From Bacteroidota bacterium (GTDB lineage Bacteria > Bacteroidota > Bacteroidia > SXHM01): a DNA stretch of 64,000 bases. The stretch covers positions 4,441-68,440 of the forward strand of contig CANKAM010000015.1 in the NCBI GenBank assembly GCA_947479755.1. Reading direction: 5' to 3'. Positions 6,135-39,072 of the stretch are shown here, piece by piece. The notes beneath the pieces were generated by a model, which was given only the letters and a program-made list of their open reading frames with translations, was not told the origin of the DNA and did no database searches. Position 1 is the first letter of the stretch. Each line of letters starts with the position of its first letter. The position numbers were made by a program, and so were the translations under genes.

Positions 6135-7169
6135 CTACTTCCTATGATTTTCAATCTTATCAATAAACCCTCCAAACAAAATCTGCTTCACGCCCTCCTG
6201 AGTTAAAAATTCATGTGGAAATCCTAACTCAATTTTGCTCACTTCATTCATTCTGTTGATATGCTCCTGACTTAGTTTTACGTCAACACATTTCAGATTG
6301 TCTTTCAATTGTGCAGCATTTCGTGCGCCTACCACAGGAATTACAACACCTTTATGATTCATAACCTATTGCAATGCTACATTTCCTGCTGAACAGCCAA
6401 TTTCTTCTGCAATCTTAACCACCTCGGCAGCGATAGCCACTGAACGTTCGTTTATTCGTTTGCTTCCTTCTTTTATTCGTTTCGGGTCGTCACTTTTGGC
6501 AAGGTATTTTCCTGTTAGAGCGCCTCCTGCAAGGGGAGCCCAAGCTGTAGCAGCCAAGCCCAATTCATTTGCCATAGGCAACAAGTCACGCTCGGCATCG
6601 CGGGTAATTAAACTGTATTCAACCTGAATTCCAGCAAAGGCAGTCCACCCTCGCAAATCAGCAATTGCATCGGAGCGCGAAATAATCCATGCCGGAGTGT
6701 CTGAAATAGCAATGTGTAAGACTTTTCCTGAACGCACCATATCATCCAAGGGGCGCAATACTTCTTCAATGGGTGTAGTGAAATCCCATGCGTGAACATA
6801 AAGCACATCCACATAATCCAAACCCAAACGTTTCAGACTTCCATCTAAAGTTTGAACTAAGTTTTTGCGGTGATTCCCACTGTCGTTTATTCTTCCGATT
6901 TTGGTGGCAAGACTGTATTTTGTAGCAACAACCAGTTCATCTCTTCTTCCGCTATCTTTAATAAACTCACCAAGAAATTTTTCGCTCGTTCCTTCAGTAT
7001 AGCGGTTGGCGGTATCGATAAAATTTCCACCTGCTTCCAGAAAGGCATTAAATATGTTTTGGCTTTCTTGTTTATTGGCTCCGTAGCCCCATTCCTCTCC
7101 AAAAGTCATAGTGCCCAGGCAAATTTCAGATACACGTAAGCCTGATTTTCCAAATAGTTTGTAGTTCAT
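6135..7169 (-). pseudogene. Aldo/keto reductase interrupted by a single in-frame TAG (two ORFs, 6366..7169 and 6135..6362, in the same frame)
   Basis: The reverse-strand translation reads ...GCSAGNVALQ*VMNHKGVVIPVVGARNAAQLKDNL. The stop sits where AKRs carry the conserved Trp of the VALAW motif, so TGG became TAG. The rest of the protein has full-length AKR hallmarks: DTANRY, a Lys-containing ..ATK.., and IPVVGAR. Confidence 0.7.
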
Positions 7170-15287: not shown

Positions 15288-15440
15288 GATTCTTTAACCG
15301 CAAAGTGCGCAAAGGTTAATAGCTGCCTAAACACAAAGAGCGCAAAGCAATACAACCCTTTGCCTTTTCTTTGCGGTTTTTCTTTGCGTGCTTTGCGGTT
15401 AAACTCTTCTTTTTTACTTTTACAGCAAAATCCCATTCCC

Positions 15441-16145
15441 ATGAGCCAAGAAGAAACATCCCACCTCAAGGCAGAAATTGCCCGTCTCAACAAGATTATT
15501 AATGTGTTGTTGGAACAAAACGATGCTATTAAGGCAACTTACTCCCAACTGCTTCTTCGTTTTGAGGCAAATAATCCGACTGATAGGAAAACCTATACCC
15601 ACTTGGGACTAAGCACGTCAGTTCAATCCCAATCGTCAACCCACTTGGGATTAAGCACGCCAACTCAATCCCAACTGCCAACAGACTTGGGAATAAACCA
15701 AGCAACACAATCCCAACTGCCAACCGACTTAGGACTAAACACAGCAACTCAATCCCAGCTGCCAACCGACTTGGGAATGAGTAGGCCGCTTCATCCCGAA
15801 TCGCCAACACCTCTTCCTCTGAAACAAGAAACTATAGTTTTGCCCGAACAGATTGTTCCATCCAACACCCTGTTTGCATCCGTAGCACAGAAACTAGGGG
15901 CAGCGGGTTTCACGCGTGTAAAGAGCGGCACGCTCCAAACGGCAGCGCAACTGTTTATTCATTTTCATAACGGGGGCAATGCCGATTATGCAGGTTTGCA
16001 ACAACTCACCGGCTACTCGGCAGGCGGATTGAGCAAACTCCTGATAACCCTTCGCAAGCGCGGATTTATTCAACGCACCGGCTACGGCAAATATGGCTTA
16101 ACCGAGAGCGGAAAAACTATTTTAGCCCAAGCATTAACAACATAA
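15441..16145 (+). CDS. Hypothetical protein: N-terminal coiled coil, a 14-aa T/Q/S-rich tandem-repeat linker, and a C-terminal winged-helix-like domain
   Basis: The ORF is 15360..16145 and the likely start is MSQEETSHLK at 15441. The protein repeat THLGLS..QSQLP / TDLG..TQSQLP is encoded by 42-bp DNA tandem repeats. The C-terminus ..LRKRGFIQRTGYGKYGLTESGK.. is MarR/wHTH-like. Confidence 0.4.
   Translation: MSQEETSHLKAEIARLNKIINVLLEQNDAIKATYSQLLLRFEANNPTDRKTYTHLGLSTSVQSQSSTHLGLSTPTQSQLPTDLGINQATQSQLPTDLGLNTATQSQLPTDLGMSRPLHPESPTPLPLKQETIVLPEQIVPSNTLFASVAQKLGAAGFTRVKSGTLQTAAQLFIHFHNGGNADYAGLQQLTGYSAGGLSKLLITLRKRGFIQRTGYGKYGLTESGKTILAQALTT
15597..15785 (+). repeat. 42-bp tandem repeat x about 4.5 within the CDS
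   Basis: The units begin at 15597, 15639, 15681, 15723 and 15765 (partial). The consensus is ACCSACTTGGGAMTAARCACRBCARCTCAATCCCAACTGCCA. Confidence 0.8.
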
Positions 16146-32848: not shown

Positions 32849-34135
32849 ATGGATACACTTCAACTTACACGAAACGGTGAAATGCTTGTTAACCTGCTCT
32901 TAGAAAAGAGCATTGACGGCATTTTTATACTTGATGCCGATTTCCGGATTATCGAGTGGAACCGCGCTATGGCAAACATCTCAGGCGAAAGAAAAGAAGA
33001 TATACTGGAGAAAAATTTGTTCGTTAGCATTCCTTTTTTTGATGCCATTGAGGAAATAAAGTTCATCCGCAAAGCACTTGGTGGTGAAGAGGCGCTTTCA
33101 ACAGACAGGCCTTATTACTTCCAAAGCAACAACAAAAAAGGTTTTTTTGAAGCTCATTATACTCCCCTTACCAATATTGCCAATCAGGTTACAGGAGTAC
33201 TTGCCATCTTCAGGGATATTACTCAATTAAGAACCTTTGATGACCAGCTCATCAACCTTACAGATAAGTTGCGCGAAACCATAGGACAAAAAACGCGTGA
33301 ATTGCTTGACACCAATGACAAACTGAAAAAACAGTTACGGGAACGCAAAATGTTCGGTTATGATATTTTGCTTAAAAACATTGAGCTTACAGATAGCATT
33401 GCTTATGCCCGACACATTCAGGAAGCTATTCTCCCTCTCAAAAAAGAAATTGAAATAGCCTTTCCGCAAAGTTTTGTGTTCTTCCGACCTAAAGAAATTG
33501 TAAGCGGTGATTTTTACTGGTACAACACCAAAGGCAACAAACATTATATGGCTGCGGTTGACTGCACAGGCCATGGAGTTCCGGGCGCTTTGATTAGTAT
33601 TCTTGGTTACAATTCACTTAACCAGGCAATCAATGAACACAACATGGTTCATCCTTCTGATATATTGAACTACCTGAACAAAAGTGTAGGCAGTGTTTTT
33701 AATCACAGCGAGCGTTCAACTGTGCGTGACGGTATGGATATCTCACTTTGTTGTGTTGATTATACCACTATGACACTTGAATATGCAGGCGCATTTAATC
33801 CGCTCTACTATTTCAGCAACGGAGTTTTCAAAAAAATAAAAGGTAATCGTTTTCCAATTGGTTCGTTTCAGGGCGAAGAACTGAAAGAGTTTGTAAACCA
33901 CGAAATCAATATCAAACCCGGTGATGTGTTCTACATTTTCACCGATGGTTTTGCCGACCAGTTTGGCGGCCCAAAAGAGAAAAAATTCAAACAACGCCAG
34001 TTTGTTGAACTGTTGCTCGAAAACTACGATACTCCCATGCATAATCAGGAAAACCTGCTTCGCAAAAACATCTTAGACTGGCAAGGCAACAACGAGCAGG
34101 TAGATGATATGCTGGTTATCGGTTTCAGGATTTAG
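32849..34135 (+). CDS. PAS-domain sensor fused to PP2C-type (SpoIIE/RsbU-like) serine phosphatase
   Basis: An N-terminal PAS domain (IFILDADFRIIEWNRAMANISG) is followed by the phosphatase blocks SGDFYWY, DCTGHGVPGALIS, DGMDISLC, FTDGFADQ and DDMLVIGFRI. Confidence 0.8.
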   Translation: MDTLQLTRNGEMLVNLLLEKSIDGIFILDADFRIIEWNRAMANISGERKEDILEKNLFVSIPFFDAIEEIKFIRKALGGEEALSTDRPYYFQSNNKKGFFEAHYTPLTNIANQVTGVLAIFRDITQLRTFDDQLINLTDKLRETIGQKTRELLDTNDKLKKQLRERKMFGYDILLKNIELTDSIAYARHIQEAILPLKKEIEIAFPQSFVFFRPKEIVSGDFYWYNTKGNKHYMAAVDCTGHGVPGALISILGYNSLNQAINEHNMVHPSDILNYLNKSVGSVFNHSERSTVRDGMDISLCCVDYTTMTLEYAGAFNPLYYFSNGVFKKIKGNRFPIGSFQGEELKEFVNHEINIKPGDVFYIFTDGFADQFGGPKEKKFKQRQFVELLLENYDTPMHNQENLLRKNILDWQGNNEQVDDMLVIGFRI

Positions 34136-34622
34136 CAGGAAAAAACTCTTCCACCGTTTTCTCCATCTCCCGTTCTTTTTGCGTTCCTATCAGCAACCTG
34201 TCCCCATTCTTTAGCTCCAGTTGCAAACCCATATTCCCCGAAACATTACGCGCTTTATCCTTTCCCCACCCGCGAATTCCCCAGCCTCCATATTCATAAA
34301 TTGGTTTGTATTGGCGCACGTAAGCCTTTTCAATTTCATCCCATTTTTTCACTTTGTAGTTTATCTGAAAAGGAAAAAAACGATAATGCACACCTTCCGC
34401 ATCAACCTTAGTATCTAACCGCAAGAACAAAAACAAAACAATTAAAAGCACAGGAATTATGCTGAACATAATCAGCCCCTCATTACTTGCCGGGTTATCA
34501 CCAAACGGCTCACCCAAATAAAACTGTTTGTATAAACCATAAAGGTGTAATCCTGCAACTCCAATAATAATTAGCCATAGCCACCATTGGGTAAAGCGTT
34601 GTGTTTCGGTGAAGATTTTCAT
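34125..34622 (-). CDS. Hypothetical membrane protein (two TM helices + cytoplasmic PH-like domain), downstream partner of the XRE regulator
   Basis: The TM helices are WWLWLIIIGVAGLHLYGLY and LIMFSIIPVLLIVLFLFL. Its start overlaps the stop of 34619..34990 by 4 nt. Confidence 0.4.
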   Translation of the reverse strand: MKIFTETQRFTQWWLWLIIIGVAGLHLYGLYKQFYLGEPFGDNPASNEGLIMFSIIPVLLIVLFLFLRLDTKVDAEGVHYRFFPFQINYKVKKWDEIEKAYVRQYKPIYEYGGWGIRGWGKDKARNVSGNMGLQLELKNGDRLLIGTQKEREMEKTVEEFFPAKS

Positions 34623-34990
34623 TGCTTCTTCTTATTTAACTCCTCCATCCTTATTTTAAGCATCTCCGCCTCAAATATTTTCACCTTTGCAATCGGTTGC
34701 GATTTCAAAAAAGTCACCACATCCGTACTCTCATTTACCCGCAACAATTCATATAAATGATGCTCGGGTGGATAAACCTTCCCCGCATCAGCCTTCATTA
34801 CAAAAAGGTCATTCGGTGTACATTGAAAAATATCACATACCTTTTCAATATCCTTCACATCCCATTTCTTCATCCTCCCCGTTCCCATCCGCCAGGCTTT
34901 TTGTTTCTCAATTCCACCCTTTACCAGTGCTTCAGTAACGTTGGTCCAGCCCTTCTTCTGGGCTACTCGTCTCAAGTCAAATTTCATCAT
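34619..34990 (-). CDS. XRE-family (Cro/C1-type HTH) transcriptional regulator
   Basis: The HTH_XRE-like segment is LRRVAQKKGWTNVTEALVKG..WDVKDIEKVCDIFQCTPNDLF. The protein is 123 aa. Confidence 0.6.
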   Translation of the reverse strand: MMKFDLRRVAQKKGWTNVTEALVKGGIEKQKAWRMGTGRMKKWDVKDIEKVCDIFQCTPNDLFVMKADAGKVYPPEHHLYELLRVNESTDVVTFLKSQPIAKVKIFEAEMLKIRMEELNKKKQ

Positions 34991-35046
34991 AATTATTTGA
35001 TATTAAAATGTTTAAATTAAATTATTCCGTAAAATATAGTAAGCAA

Positions 35047-35201
35047 TTAAGTCTAGTTATTTATCCTTTAAGTCTGTCTATTTAGTAATTAAGTCTGGTT
35101 ATTTAGCAATTAAGTCTAAACATTTAGCATTTAAGTCTGTCTATTTAGCAATTAAGCCATAATATTATTAAATTAAGTCCAAATATAAAACAATTAAGTC
35201 T
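35047..35201. repeat. Array of eight direct repeats with exact 21-bp periodicity (core TTAAGTCT..TATTTAGC) in a divergent promoter region
   Basis: The TTAAGTCT cores are at 35047, 35068, 35089, 35110, 35131, 35152 (ttaagcca), 35173 (ttaagtcc) and 35194. Every spacing is exactly 21 bp. Confidence 0.85.
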
Positions 35202-35393
35202 TCCAACACAAAAACCCCTCTTAAAATTCAAAATAAGAGAACAACATTTGCATAAACTTTTGGCTTAGGTCTGCGAATTAAATCTGTGCTAATCTGTGAA
35301 ATCTGTGGCAGAAATAAGATTGCTGAAAAATTGCCCTCGCCCCTCCGCACCTTTGCCAGCAATCTTATTTATATTTGCCCAAAACCTATCATC

Positions 35394-36701
35394 ATGAAAT
35401 ACGCTCAGATATCAAACAAACTCTTTATTGAAAACCGCAACCGTTTAACGCAAAAACTAAAACCAAACTCGGTTGCCATTTTCAACAGCAACGATATTAT
35501 GCCCACCAATGCCGATGGCACCATGGCCTTCCGCCAAAACAGCGATTTGTTTTACCTCAGCGGCATTGATCAGGAAGAAAGCATCCTCATCCTCTTCCCC
35601 GATTCATTGAATAAGGACTACAAAGAAGTTCTCTTCGTGCGCGAAACCAACGAATACATAGCAGTGTGGGAAGGAGCGAAGCTCACCAAAAAAGAAGCCA
35701 CCGAAGTTTCGGGAATAAAAACTGTTTTCTGGCTCTCGGAATTCGAACGCGTCTTCAATACCCTGGTGGCCGAAGCACAAAACGTTTACCTCAATACCAA
35801 CGAACACCTGCGCGCCACCATTGAAGTTGAAACCCGCGATGCCCGCTTCATTAAAAAGTGCAAAGACCGCTTTCCCCTGCATAATTACGAGCGCAGCTTT
35901 CCCCTGCTCATGGAACTCCGCTCCATAAAATCCGAAACCGAAGTAGAGTTAATCCGTCAAGCCTGCGCCATTACCAAAAAAGGATTTATGCGCACCCTCG
36001 CCTTTGTAAAACCGGGCGTTATGGAATATGAAATTGAAGCCGAACTAATCCACGAGTTTGTCCGCAACCGCTCCCGTGGCTTTGCCTACGGACCAATCAT
36101 TGCTTCGGGCCTCAACTCCTGTGTACTGCACTATGTTGAGAATAATAAAGAGTGCAAAGACGGTGATATCTTATTAATGGATGTAGCTGCCGAATACGCC
36201 AACTATGCTTCAGACCTTACCCGCTGCATTCCCGTAAATGGTAAATTCACCGAAAGACAAAAGCAGGTTTACAATGCCGTATTGCGTGTAATGAAAGAAG
36301 CTACCTCCATGCTTCGCCCAGGAATTATCATCAGCGAGTTTAATAAGGAAGTAGGTAAAATAACCGAAAAGGAATTAATAGGTCTTGGCCTCTTCACCGA
36401 AAAAGAGGTGCGCGACCAAAACCCCGACCAGCCTTTGTACAAAAAGTACTTTATGCACGGCACTTCGCACTTTCTTGGATTGGATGTTCACGATGTAGGC
36501 GACTTCAACAAACCCGTTCAACCCGGAATGGTGTTTACTTGCGAACCCGGCATCTATATACCTGCAGAAAAAATAGGTATCCGCTTAGAAAACGACATTT
36601 TGGTTACCAACGGCAACCCCATCGACCTGATGGCCGATATTCCTTTAGAAGCAAATGATATTGAAGCCCTGATGGCTGAATCAGTGAAGGTTCTTATATA
36701 A
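35394..36701 (+). CDS. pepP: Xaa-Pro aminopeptidase (M24B, aminopeptidase P/prolidase family)
   Basis: It has the M24B metal-ligand blocks ..DILLMDVAAEY.., HGTSHFLGLDVHDVG and ..GMVFTCEPGIY. The ORF opens at 35286 and the likely start is MKYAQIS at 35394. Confidence 0.85.
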   Translation: MKYAQISNKLFIENRNRLTQKLKPNSVAIFNSNDIMPTNADGTMAFRQNSDLFYLSGIDQEESILILFPDSLNKDYKEVLFVRETNEYIAVWEGAKLTKKEATEVSGIKTVFWLSEFERVFNTLVAEAQNVYLNTNEHLRATIEVETRDARFIKKCKDRFPLHNYERSFPLLMELRSIKSETEVELIRQACAITKKGFMRTLAFVKPGVMEYEIEAELIHEFVRNRSRGFAYGPIIASGLNSCVLHYVENNKECKDGDILLMDVAAEYANYASDLTRCIPVNGKFTERQKQVYNAVLRVMKEATSMLRPGIIISEFNKEVGKITEKELIGLGLFTEKEVRDQNPDQPLYKKYFMHGTSHFLGLDVHDVGDFNKPVQPGMVFTCEPGIYIPAEKIGIRLENDILVTNGNPIDLMADIPLEANDIEALMAESVKVLI

Positions 36702-37538
36702 GTCCTCGCAGTTCTGGTAGCGGTCGCCTTTGGCATTCTTGCCATCGCACCTCCCAAAATAGTATATCAGCGAAAAGCTTACGTCTATAAAGCTGTCTTT
36801 TTGGTCAGGATTTCCGCGTGTTGCTCTGTTTGCTCTTGCCACACCTCCTGTCGGGTCAGAGTAATAAACCGTTGCAGCCCCTCCCGGTGAAGTCGCCAGA
36901 ATATTTGGAGCAAGGTAATCGGTACTTACATCGTCTAAGTAATCTGTAAAGGTAACATGGTAAACAGCCTCCAACTTAACACCCCAGTTGCAATGAAAAC
37001 GGTAACGCACACCCAAACCAACAGGAATAACAGGCTGCCACAAAGAATAGGCCTTGGCATAACCGCCTCCCGCAGCATATTGTCCCTCAGTGCCCAGCGG
37101 CTGCAAAGCCACCCCATGTGAAAGCGGGCTGAAATGGAATACCCCACCTCCTACTGTAATATAAGGAACTACACGCCCCGCCCTTTCACGCAATATGTTA
37201 AAGGTAATTCGCAACGAAATCTCGTCTATTTTTGAGTAAAAGCCTAAGTTGCGCAGCTGCATAGCTGCGTTTGTAGAATAAGTGTCGTCAGCCGCAAGCG
37301 AACCATGCAAATAGTGCAACTGCAATCCCCAGCGGGTATTAATATCATAATGAACACCTGCATTAATAGCCAATTTCACAGTCTTAAAATCAGGCAGAGC
37401 TGTCTCTTTCAGATCACCCAAATAATACATACCTCCTACCCCAACATAAACCGAAAACCTTCCCTGGGGCTTTGCCGTTCCCGCCAGAGTAAGAAGAAAG
37501 ATAACCGTAAATAGAATTCGTGAACCGCTGATTTTCAT
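36681..37538 (-). CDS. Outer-membrane beta-barrel protein (OmpA-like barrel/DUF6089-like)
   Basis: It has a signal peptide, alternating beta-strand pattern, Gly/Tyr-rich loops, and a length of 285 aa. It overlaps the 3' end of pepP by 21 nt (convergent). Confidence 0.45.
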   Translation of the reverse strand: MKISGSRILFTVIFLLTLAGTAKPQGRFSVYVGVGGMYYLGDLKETALPDFKTVKLAINAGVHYDINTRWGLQLHYLHGSLAADDTYSTNAAMQLRNLGFYSKIDEISLRITFNILRERAGRVVPYITVGGGVFHFSPLSHGVALQPLGTEGQYAAGGGYAKAYSLWQPVIPVGLGVRYRFHCNWGVKLEAVYHVTFTDYLDDVSTDYLAPNILATSPGGAATVYYSDPTGGVARANRATRGNPDQKDSFIDVSFSLIYYFGRCDGKNAKGDRYQNCEDLYKNLH

Positions 37539-37665
37539 GTGCTTTTACTGATAGAACGTAAATTAGGGCAAAGTTAGTATGTGGCTGGCAAACTTTTATT
37601 TGCTATTAAAATTTAAATAAGATATGTTTGCACATCAAACTGTTGAAAATTAAACACATTTATTC

Positions 37666-38097
37666 ATGTTCAACTCAGAAAACAAATCTCAGAAGTCAAA
37701 TAGCGGCACTGATGTTAACCCAAACTCAAGCAACCGTATTCTTGCCGGAACCATTATAGAAGGTAGCATCCAGACCGAAGGCCATATCCGTATTGACGGA
37801 ACGTTAATAGGTTCTATTACCTGCAAAGGCAAAATAGTAATCGGCTCAACCGGAAAAGTGGAAGGCGACATCAAATGTCAGAATGCCGACATTGAAGGAA
37901 CTATTAAAGCCAATATTTCGGTTTCAGAACTGTTAAGTCTAAAATCTACGGCAAAACTTACCGGTGATATATATGCTAATAAATTAGCCATTGAGCCGGG
38001 CGCAATGTTTACCGGAAGCTGCAGCATGGGTGCTATTATAAAAGACATGCAGCATGGAAAATCCGGAGAAGCCCAAAGAACCCAAAAAACAGCTTAA
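37666..38097 (+). CDS. Bactofilin family cytoskeletal protein
   Basis: The DUF583 beta-helix repeats are IIEGSIQTEGHIRIDGTLIGSITCKGKIVIGSTGKVEGDIKCQNADIEGTIKANI.., with disordered N- and C-terminal tails. Confidence 0.8.
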   Translation: MFNSENKSQKSNSGTDVNPNSSNRILAGTIIEGSIQTEGHIRIDGTLIGSITCKGKIVIGSTGKVEGDIKCQNADIEGTIKANISVSELLSLKSTAKLTGDIYANKLAIEPGAMFTGSCSMGAIIKDMQHGKSGEAQRTQKTA

Positions 38098-38281
38098 CGA
38101 TTACGCCCGCTACTCGGGAATGGCTGTGCAGATGATTGCCATTATCCTTATTGGTGTGTTGGGCGGAATAAAGTTGGACGAGGTTCTTTCACTTAAATTT
38201 CCTGTTTTCACCTTAGTGCTTACACTGTTGTCGGTTTTTCTATCCATGTTCTTTGCAATCAGGGATTTTTTGAAGAAATAA
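38054..38281 (+). CDS. AtpZ/AtpI-like small membrane protein
   Basis: The block KKQLNDYARYSGMAVQMIAIILIGVLGGIKLDE..FPVFTLVLTLLSV matches the AtpZ/AtpI family pattern. It overlaps the bactofilin 3' end by 44 nt in another frame. Confidence 0.45.
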   Translation: MENPEKPKEPKKQLNDYARYSGMAVQMIAIILIGVLGGIKLDEVLSLKFPVFTLVLTLLSVFLSMFFAIRDFLKK

Positions 38282-38285
38282 TAAA

Positions 38286-38657
38286 ATGGTAGTCTTTTCA
38301 AAAAACCTTATTCTGTTCACACTGGCAATTGGTGCAAGCATATTTGCCTGGAATAGCTTTATGCCTGCGGAGTATGTTTTTGCAAAAGCCTGGTTTATTC
38401 TTGCTCTGTATTTTGCAATAACTGCCGCACTCCACTGGGGCGCAATACAATCAGGAAGTAAGGGCGGACAGCAGTTTATCCGCTATTTTCTGGCGGCAAC
38501 CATGCTTAAACTATTTCTCCTACTCATCATTATAACACTCTATGTTATGACAAAGCCTGCCGATGCTATGCATTTCGCAGTTTGCTTTCTTGTTCTCTAC
38601 TTATTTTATACGGTTTTTGAAACCATCCACCTGCTGGAACACTTTAAAAATAAGTAA
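38286..38657 (+). CDS. Hypothetical four-TM membrane protein
   Basis: It has a hydrophobic profile only and no recognisable motif. Confidence 0.35.
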   Translation: MVVFSKNLILFTLAIGASIFAWNSFMPAEYVFAKAWFILALYFAITAALHWGAIQSGSKGGQQFIRYFLAATMLKLFLLLIIITLYVMTKPADAMHFAVCFLVLYLFYTVFETIHLLEHFKNK

Positions 38658-39072
38658 GTCACTTTTACACAAACTCTCAACATCTTGTGAACAAAAGCAA
38701 GTAGAATTTCTACACAGGAACTTCTCTTTATTATCAGTTAATTCAGGATTAACAACCCGCTGAAACCCTTGTCACGAAAAGGGTTATCGATGTATGTACT
38801 ATGCAGTATTACCGCAATGTTAAAAACTTTGCACGATTGTTTAAAACTATGAATCGAATCCTAAAAAAAATTATCCAAAATTTGCTGCAACGAAAATCGA
38901 AGAAATTACAACTCGTAATTTCTTCATTTCCAAAAAATCAGGTTAATTGTCTGTGAAAGGCAGACTTTAAGCGGCAAATTGCGCTATAAAGTTTGAGTGA
39001 GAACTTTTTCACTCTTTTTTCAGGCAAAATACCGCAGAAAATGAAGATTTACCGGGTAAAAAGCATATATAT

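Follow-up and report, generated by a model that had tools for sequence, protein, structure and literature searches.

Phased 21-bp direct repeats upstream of an XRE/HTH_26 gene family in Bacteroidota, a probable cooperative operator of the adjacent regulator

In textbooks, XRE/Cro-CI proteins read short palindromic operators. In a 64,000-nucleotide stretch of a Bacteroidota bacterium (GenBank assembly GCA_947479755.1, contig CANKAM010000015.1, positions 4,441 to 68,440; in the following, the window) the gene of such a regulator is preceded by a row of eight non-palindromic direct repeats, which raises the question of what reads this row and what it does. An earlier note on this DNA had proposed a regulatory array to which the adjacent XRE protein binds, a remnant replication or partition origin, or a phase-variable spacer element. 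Our comparison of related loci strongly supports the first proposal: the array travels with the gene, its core covaries with the recognition helix of the encoded protein, and binding is predicted. The array is probably the cognate multi-site operator of the adjacent XRE/HTH_26 protein, filled cooperatively on one face of the DNA and serving autoregulation.

The sequence and Tandem Repeats Finder (period 21, 7.6 copies) bore out the eight units at the positions given by the earlier note (Table 1), with invariant spacing. An exact phase of 21 bp amounts to two helical turns, so all copies face the same side of the DNA, as the note had said, and its verdict that this is not a simple dimeric operator is upheld. 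Scored with a position weight matrix trained on the array itself, the eight in-phase units reached +15 to +25 bits, with about -19 bits at both edges. On the plus strand the unit is spelled TTAAGTCT-N3-TATTTAGC-AA; the spelling first proposed, TTAAGTCT-N5-TATTTAGC, had no match in the array even with up to three mismatches. Six of the eight octamer cores are exact, the exceptions being those at 35152 (TTAAGCCA) and 35173 (TTAAGTCC). The TATTTAGC half is discernible in units 2-5 only, and the three units nearest to pepP, the gene on the far side of the array, are degenerate outside the core. The array takes up 168 of the 403 intergenic bp and does not fill the region, as had been thought; the GC content of this intergenic region is 0.29 and that of the window 0.40.

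Several counts set the array apart from its surroundings. The octamer TTAAGTCT was found eight times in the 64-kb window, six times inside the array, where 2.2 occurrences were expected, and none of 100 shuffles reached eight. Core pairs 21 bp apart gave seven overlapping matches in the array and one weak match elsewhere in the window (expected 0.69). Among 159 consecutive 400-bp chunks of the window, the one with the array had a lag-21 self-identity of 0.72, and the runner-up had 0.50. The array is unique within the window.

No reading frame is open across the window array and no open reading frame (ORF) is conserved across the arrays of other lineages; a coding repeat was rejected on account of the closed frames in the window. 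ORFs of 64 and 50 aa are called within the arrays of L188 (1410-1604) and L011 (404-556), where the repeat is read as a heptad, (DLMANVT)n. As this frame is closed by stops in other lineages, they are artefacts of a stop-free seven-codon repeat, and ORFs called inside arrays of this XRE family should be annotated as such. A structured RNA was likewise rejected, with no Rfam match at E <= 1 and a folding z of +1.95, less stable than shuffles.

The few close relatives of the XRE protein were collected by a word search (6 clusters) and a profile search (20 clusters) of 5.8 billion proteins, and DNA was compared from 12 lineages whose proteins are 29-100% identical to that of the window. The earlier note had named absence of the array upstream of orthologous gene pairs as a point against it. 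The array was found in all 12 lineages with usable upstream DNA, always immediately before the XRE gene, whose coding strand carries the core. The best period within 8-40 bp was exactly 21 in 11 of 11 testable loci, at an identity of 0.65-0.90. A search of viral contigs for full-length family members found short HTH_26 proteins only; these generic genes (about 70 aa) served as controls, and none of the 12 had a comparable array. Self-trained matrices gave 8-11 units in every lineage and sharp array edges, where the scores drop from about +18 bits to about -18. The core is kept down to 29% protein identity, and L189, the sole member examined of the wider family beyond the close subfamily, has an array of 11 units.

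Unit number thus ranges from 8 to 11 between lineages and differs by whole units (8 in the window, 10 in L001), as would be expected if the array were a neutral or phase-variable minisatellite expanding by slipped-strand replication. Comparison within lineages, with two or three samples each, speaks against this. The upstream region of the window is identical to that of L178 (403/403 bp), and that of L001 to L003 (393/393 bp); L002 differs from these at three positions and has the same 10 units, and the arrays of L180 and L181 are identical. The array length, which the earlier note had proposed to compare between strains, was therefore identical or equal in unit number within each lineage. Unit copies have diverged from one another (63-79% identity), which disfavours frequent slippage, and the distal units of lineages with 75-85% protein identity are orthologous position by position, with the core kept far beyond that range. 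Gains or losses come in 21-bp steps, by whole two-turn units; placed upstream of the -7 box, they would also leave promoter spacing unaltered. We regard a minisatellite as hardly credible, and the phase-variable spacer falls with it.

Scans for the array elsewhere gave no further relatives among the matches listed. Among genome contigs only the window's own species (L178) matched. A scan of viral and metagenome contigs for GACTTAA-N14-GACTTAA-N14-GACTTAA yielded at least 166 loci; among the matches listed there was no XRE relative (tblastn; hmmsearch, E <= 1), the loci being tandem repeats of 21 bp or 7 bp that are unrelated and lie, in about half of the cases, within long ORFs. That the window and L178 agree to 100% in the array, in an alignment of 94% overall, was considered as a sign of special conservation; this was rejected, as the identical array belongs to a 2-kb mosaic tract that includes all of pepP. 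The similarity of window positions 34183-38995 to L178, a contig of a metagenome-assembled genome (CAMAVO010000041.1, labelled Chitinophaga pinensis), is mosaic: about 100% at 34626-36700 (XRE gene, array and pepP), 92-97% in the flanks and about 72% in a DUF6089 outer-membrane gene (36701-37300). This points to strain-level recombination or chimeric assembly, together with a fast-evolving surface protein.

Conservation within the unit was measured over 81 units from 10 arrays. Positions G3, A4, T6, A9, T14 and T20 are conserved across lineages, and the remaining positions within a single array only, which indicates concerted evolution. The lineages share a 7-bp core, GACTTAA, outside which the unit is specific to each of them. 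One helical turn past the core lies T14, so that each unit offers a strong and a weak contact on the same DNA face. Core position 5 is conserved to 0.97 within arrays and is either C or T between lineages, behaving as would be expected of a specificity-determining base.

This position changes together with the helix region of the XRE protein. E28/Q30 goes with GACT in seven lineages with known cores, and P0009, which has Q30 with G28G29, also retains GACT. N28/H30 goes with GATT in three lineages (P0011, P0015 and P0018). The unit of P0009 reads GACTGTAA, that of its sister P0005 (E28K29) GACTTAAA, and that of the most distant protein, P0020 (SDNF, 29% identical), ACGACTTA. With the helix columns left out, a neighbour-joining tree that carries no support values places the H30 lineages at two points, which suggests at least two matched changes.

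The same data bear on the proposal that the array boosts or silences the promoter as an intrinsically curved or UP-like AT-rich element, or as a site for some other host factor, for instance a nucleoid-associated protein, and accompanies the XRE gene only as a part of its promoter. AT-rich units phased at two helical turns can curve DNA, a direct-repeat layout is atypical for XRE dimers, and XRE binding is itself a prediction. The most conserved positions, however, include G3, C5 and G12 and not A-tracts, and position 5 switches along with the recognition helix. The site of a host factor would not be expected to change between close hosts while staying uniform within each array, and generic HTH_26 genes are without such arrays. 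We consider this explanation distinctly unlikely.

Two further candidates in and around the unit were rejected. A hidden dyad, ACTTA ... TAAAT, shifts in register between lineages, and no covariation links its mirrored position to core position 5. Some arrays have short GC-richer repeats on their distal side (L001, GCACGGAG; L182, GGCAGT x4; L184, CACAGA-type), and the window has three tandem 9-bp copies of AATCTGTG-type between array and pepP (35280-35307); as a second conserved element these were dismissed, being lineage-specific and clear in about 4 of 11 loci.

The XRE protein matches HTH_26 (PF13443) over residues 7-68 (E 3.5e-7, 30.8 bits, cut-off 22), and PF13443 is present in 20 of 20 relatives. 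Its recognition helix is predicted at residues 29-37, and the helix region reads E28 K29 Q30 K31 A32 W33 R34 M35. An AlphaFold (AF2) model from the 20-sequence alignment (predicted local distance difference test, pLDDT, 86) has a five-helix XRE core with a helix-turn-helix (HTH), followed by a C-terminal extension of about 55 aa that is modelled as two short helices and a long one (100-122) and found no structural match in a fold search. Foldseek superposed the N-terminal 57-68 residues on SinR, CylR2, Stl, C.AhdI and 434 Cro at 1.9-3.3 A root-mean-square deviation, with E-values that are weak (0.04 or higher) owing to the small domain. The structural neighbours of the core are repressors, among them a Salmonella phage repressor, SaPI2 Stl, CylR2, SinR, C-proteins and CapH. 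No NCBIfam family matched the protein, and a sequence search of the PDB gave no match to 2xcj (P2 C) or any repressor. A weak match of the family profile (residues 50-106) to one blade of the DNA-wrapping C-terminal domain of GyrA (PDB, E 0.006) had no fold-search support and is probably due to chance.

An exhaustive HMMER search at E <= 1e-10 revealed a wider family of 436 clusters at 50% identity, nearly all of 113-125 aa and matching end to end. Their scaffold is conserved and helix positions 28-35 are hypervariable, a combination typical of families whose members each read a site of their own.

Bacteroidota promoters consist of a -7 box, TAnnTTTG, and a TTTG at -33; a sigma-70 promoter scan is uninformative for this group. 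A -7-type box begins 13-18 bp after the G of the last core in the window, L001, L007, L011, L182, L186, L180 and L190. It is spelled TATATTTT in the window and in L001 and is perfect in L007 (TATATTTG) and L186 (TAATTTTG). Its place just past the last core puts the candidate XRE promoter within the proximal end of the array. Judged from the consensus, the last unit would cover about -30 to -10 and the penultimate unit would be centred near -41, so that occupancy of the array would have to affect transcription of the XRE gene. The overlap of a unit with the core promoter favours autorepression; an activating state at low occupancy, with concentration-dependent activate-then-repress logic, is geometrically possible.

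The gene pepP has a candidate -7 box of its own well beyond the array, which leaves the array outside its core promoter. As the divergent arrangement is not conserved either, pepP is probably not a target. An inverted repeat (window 35312-35370; 19-nt arms, 89% complementary, 21-nt loop) ends exactly at the pepP -7 box; the syntenic L001 lacks the second arm. The repeat may be specific to pepP, as an operator or hairpin.

From these data we infer that the XRE protein binds the array, and the following stoichiometry, cooperativity and sign of regulation are proposed. The N-terminal end of the recognition helix (residues 28-30) would read the 7-bp core GACTTAA as the strongly specified contact, with a weaker conserved contact one helical turn on (G12, T14). 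Each 21-bp unit would hold one protein copy, monomer or dimer, all on one DNA face. Neighbours would touch one another, probably through the family-specific C-terminal extension, and would fill the roughly 170 bp cooperatively and in a threshold-like manner; that unit number keeps within the narrow range of 8-11 points to a complex of defined size. A filled array would feed back on the XRE gene and on its co-transcribed cargo, here the DUF6141 membrane protein, with net autorepression as the likeliest sign.

Several points weigh against this operator. The covariation amounts to a few evolutionary events on an unsupported neighbour-joining tree of short proteins, and in a blind test on P0007, for which H30 predicted GATT, the contig ends two bases before the diagnostic position. 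No convincing dyad was seen within the unit, though XRE dimers usually read inverted repeats. The arrays have 8-11 sites, where two suffice for P2 C. No -33 TTTG element was seen, the promoter boxes being consensus matches only, and the case for the wider family would stand on one member, L189. In L180 an insert shifts most of the array by about 130 bp upstream, leaving one repeat-like unit and the -7 box beside the gene, and the coupling of array and promoter is thus not absolute. The insert itself, at 4830-4960 in L180 and L181 (about -170 to -45 before the XRE ATG), has two GC-rich hairpins (GGGGCTAAAGCCCC followed by a T-run; CCCCGCCCTGAAGGACGGGG) and may be a small mobile element or a terminator.

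Table 1. Coordinates of the repeat array, its cores and the adjoining genes and candidate promoter boxes in the window
Feature	Position	Strand	Description
Array, eight 21-bp direct repeats	35035..35214	-	exact 21-bp phase; envelope spans both registers
Array, plus-strand register	35047-35214	+	
Array, gene-strand register	35035-35202	-	unit nnGACTTAAttGcTaAATAnn
Core 8, proximal	35047..35053	-	GACTTAA; G 63 nt before XRE ATG; unit overlaps candidate core promoter
Core 7	35068..35074	-	GACTTAA
Core 6	35089..35095	-	GACTTAA
Core 5	35110..35116	-	GACTTAA
Core 4	35131..35137	-	GACTTAA
Core 3	35152..35158	-	GGCTTAA, one mismatch
Core 2	35173..35179	-	GACTTAA
Core 1, distal	35194..35200	-	GACTTAA
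Candidate -7 box of XRE operon	35031..35038	-	TATATTTT; consensus TAnnTTTG; starts 15 bp downstream of last core's G
XRE-family regulator gene	34619..34990	-	123 aa; HTH_26
DUF6141-family gene	34125..34622	-	165 aa; two hydrophobic segments; 4-bp ATGA overlap with XRE stop
pepP candidate -7 box	35370-35377		TATATTTG; about 155 bp beyond array
pepP	from 35394		M24 + AMP_N

The gene annotation of the earlier note, with an HTH_26 gene, an ATGA overlap with an ORF of two hydrophobic segments, and pepP, was confirmed (Table 1). Its divergent promoter with pepP is not a general feature. The upstream neighbour is pepP in the window and L001 and elsewhere a tRNA (L010), a co-directional gene (L011) or an unrelated gene, such as those for a DNA_pol_A_exo1 exonuclease (L004), an acyl-CoA dehydrogenase (L180) or a DUF922 protein (L186); CCG is also among the contexts. 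Downstream lies the DUF6141 gene in the window and, after an extra gene, in L001; a gene for a protein of about 305 aa in L007, L010, L011, L180 and L190; a 1311-aa protein of the type IX secretion system (T9SS) type in L184; and a GldL_N protein in L188. Nothing co-directional follows in L182 and L186. Since the surroundings are not conserved, the conserved module is the array with the XRE gene. The XRE/membrane-protein operon that the note had described is accordingly no conserved unit, the membrane gene being lineage-specific cargo.

The 165-aa membrane protein has a weak direct Pfam match to DUF6141 (E 0.028, below cut-off). Its homologues make up more than 3,190 clusters, many of which carry PF19638 and the name 'DUF6141 family protein'; the full-length matches listed share 47-96% identity across 95% or more of the length. 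DUF6141 spans Bacteroidota, and one source labels a member bacterial pleckstrin-homology. It is far commoner than the XRE subfamily, which makes it cargo and not an obligate partner. In L001 an extra 189-aa gene with a lipoprotein-like N-terminus (6459-7028), absent from the window, stands between the XRE gene (85% identical) and the DUF6141 gene; the ATGA coupling of the window is therefore not ancestral to this pair.

The protein of about 305 aa (MTDKQSNH...) is orthologous in its five lineages, at 49-68% identity. Its C-terminus has a weak CarboxypepD_reg-like match, and neither PADLOC nor NCBIfam gave a match. The regions concerned are L010 1184-3714, L011 1070-2826, L190 574-2950, L007 640-1560 and L180 5413-6357. 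In L010, L011 and L190 it is followed by a Type IIG MmeI-like restriction-modification (R-M) gene (PADLOC E 1e-136 to 1e-151) of two subtypes. No R-M homologue was found in the 64-kb window.

Such cargo could mean that the XRE-bound array is mainly an establishment timer or bistable activator for mobile genes, with a promoter that has no -33 element and fires once many sites are filled, so delaying or gating the downstream genes, in analogy to the controller (C) proteins of R-M systems or to late BvgA promoters. The missing -33 TTTG would fit, as would the penultimate unit, which near -41 would take the position of a class II activator. The R-M gene in three lineages points the same way, as do the varying location of the module in related genomes (L182 and L186), the resemblance of the fold to C-proteins and CapH, and the precedent of BvgA at Pptx, where many weak phased sites give high-threshold activation. 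On the other side, the last unit overlaps -30 to -10, which favours repression. The window and L001 are without an R-M gene and L182 and L186 without co-directional cargo; Type IIG enzymes are single polypeptides with no obvious need of a delay, and the C-box architecture is absent. We think a timer unlikely, and continue to prefer the autoregulatory operator.

A broader proposal takes in cargo and family together. Array and XRE gene would form a self-contained relocatable module, in which a nucleoprotein complex of fixed size, with 8-11 protomers or dimers running along about 170-230 bp or wrapping it, acts as a bistable switch of high threshold or as a timer of establishment for variable cargo (Type IIG R-M enzymes, the conserved 305-aa protein, membrane proteins), private co-evolved cores give immunity-like specificity, and the whole spans a large uncharacterised Bacteroidota family of 436 or more clusters at 50% identity. 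Taken as one joint claim this is tentative and on balance doubtful.

The chromosomal setting also bears on whether the array is an iteron-type replication origin, a partition centromere or a remnant of either, with the XRE protein as initiator or adaptor. Plasmid iterons (P1, F, R6K, RK2, pSC101) are direct repeats of 17-22 bp with a period of 21-22 bp that lie beside the gene of their binder, with specificity varying within the family. Their binders are winged-helix Rep initiators on plasmids, with DnaA boxes and an unwinding element. Partition centromeres of types II and III (parC-ParR, tubC-TubR) consist of about ten phased direct repeats upstream of the binder's operon and form an extended nucleoprotein filament. 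The array resembles iterons in repeat length, period and adjacency: 8-11 direct repeats of about 21 bp, two turns apart, immediately precede the gene of a small DNA-binding protein. The protein, however, is a 123-aa HTH_26 protein and not a Rep_3 or winged-helix initiator, a ribbon-helix-helix (RHH) ParR or a TubR. Neither a plasmid setting nor DnaA boxes nor an unwinding element is found here, and the adjacent cytomotive NTPase and the RHH or winged-helix adaptor that a centromere requires are both absent.

No gene for Rep, ParA, ParM, TubZ, an NTPase, a helicase, a primase or an integrase was present in any context examined, and no prophage genes were found in these contexts. The locus is chromosomal, with synteny to pepP, ribonucleotide reductase and bactofilin genes on contigs of at least 26 kb. 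The XRE protein has no relative in 72,556 plasmids, and no true family member, none of the same architecture, was found in 50,697 phage records; the sole phage match (Lacticaseibacillus phage R23.1) was rejected as a CI-type repressor of 217 aa whose operators are ordinary. In every lineage the arrays are intact and under selection and hence are not decaying remnants. With their defining features missing, the iteron-origin and centromere readings fail; we rate this explanation, including the remnant origin of the earlier note, as very improbable.

Apart from the array, the window has a 42-bp / 84-bp tandem repeat (4.3 / 1.8 copies, 80-84% matches) at 15597-15778, within an ORF at 15360-16145(+), which is presumably a coding repeat.

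A full-text search of the open-access literature brought up no account of arrays like these, either with XRE/HTH_26 regulators or in Bacteroidota. Operator arrays that fill cooperatively at two-turn spacing are a known device; the protein family, the multiplicity of 8-11 direct repeats and the private module of array and gene are new. The family keeps its row at exact two-turn spacing from 100% down to 29% protein identity, with a core that tracks the recognition helix. If binding is confirmed, it would provide a natural series of matched proteins and sites for studying how XRE proteins read direct repeats and how specificity is re-coded (Q30/C5 vs H30/T5). It would also supply synthetic biology in Bacteroidota with an autoregulatory part that is compact, orthogonal and probably ultrasensitive, and would give a lead on the gating of some Bacteroidota defence and envelope genes. 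The R-M association in three lineages raises C-protein-like gating of mobile cargo as a possibility. Should the module proposal be true, the system would be an XRE counterpart of iteron or C-protein logic, with direct repeats replacing palindromes.

Three regulators invite closer comparison with the operator proposed here. The C-proteins of R-M systems are, like the window protein, small XRE-fold autoregulators encoded upstream of cargo, which in some of our lineages includes an R-M gene, and their operators contain GACT, with natural GACT-to-GATT variants. C-boxes consist of two palindromes, GACT-N3-AGTC-N4-GACT-N3-AGTC (PMC2175313). They span 26 bp, whereas the units here (GACTTAATTGC...) have no AGTC partner and come in 8-11 direct copies. 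C-proteins also differ in having no C-terminal extension; the window has DUF6141 and not an R-M gene downstream, and the R-M association of the family is partial, with the Type IIG gene two genes downstream in L010, L011 and L190 only.

The phosphorylated response regulator BvgA is one of the two nearest mechanistic precedents. At Pptx six BvgA dimers, spaced at 22 bp on one face, reach the core promoter and create a threshold (PMC7250471). At Pptx and Pfha three to six dimers of BvgA~P are set at two-turn spacing on one face, in a row that runs from far upstream to the core promoter edge (PMC7250471), as the array does here. BvgA is, however, of the NarL/FixJ type, occupies weak inverted heptads head-to-head and regulates many promoters in trans, whereas the present case has an XRE/HTH_26 protein, clearly direct repeats, a strong core and an array private to the regulator's own gene.

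The other precedent is the P2 C repressor, an XRE-fold dimer that cooperatively binds 8-bp non-palindromic direct repeats 22 bp apart (PMC2995052). The two share non-palindromic direct repeats (here a 7-bp core, a 21-bp period and no dyad), two-turn spacing and sites that overlap the core promoter, which is a candidate one in our case. P2 C is a 99-aa prophage repressor with two half-sites and no detectable sequence similarity to the present family, which has 8-11 sites and a distinct C-terminal extension and is found on Bacteroidota chromosomes, outside prophages. In the model proposed for P2 C, one HTH reads the repeat specifically and the other makes less specific contacts (PMC2995052), and such a single-HTH model would fit the strong core and the weak second contact (G12, T14) of each unit in the array.

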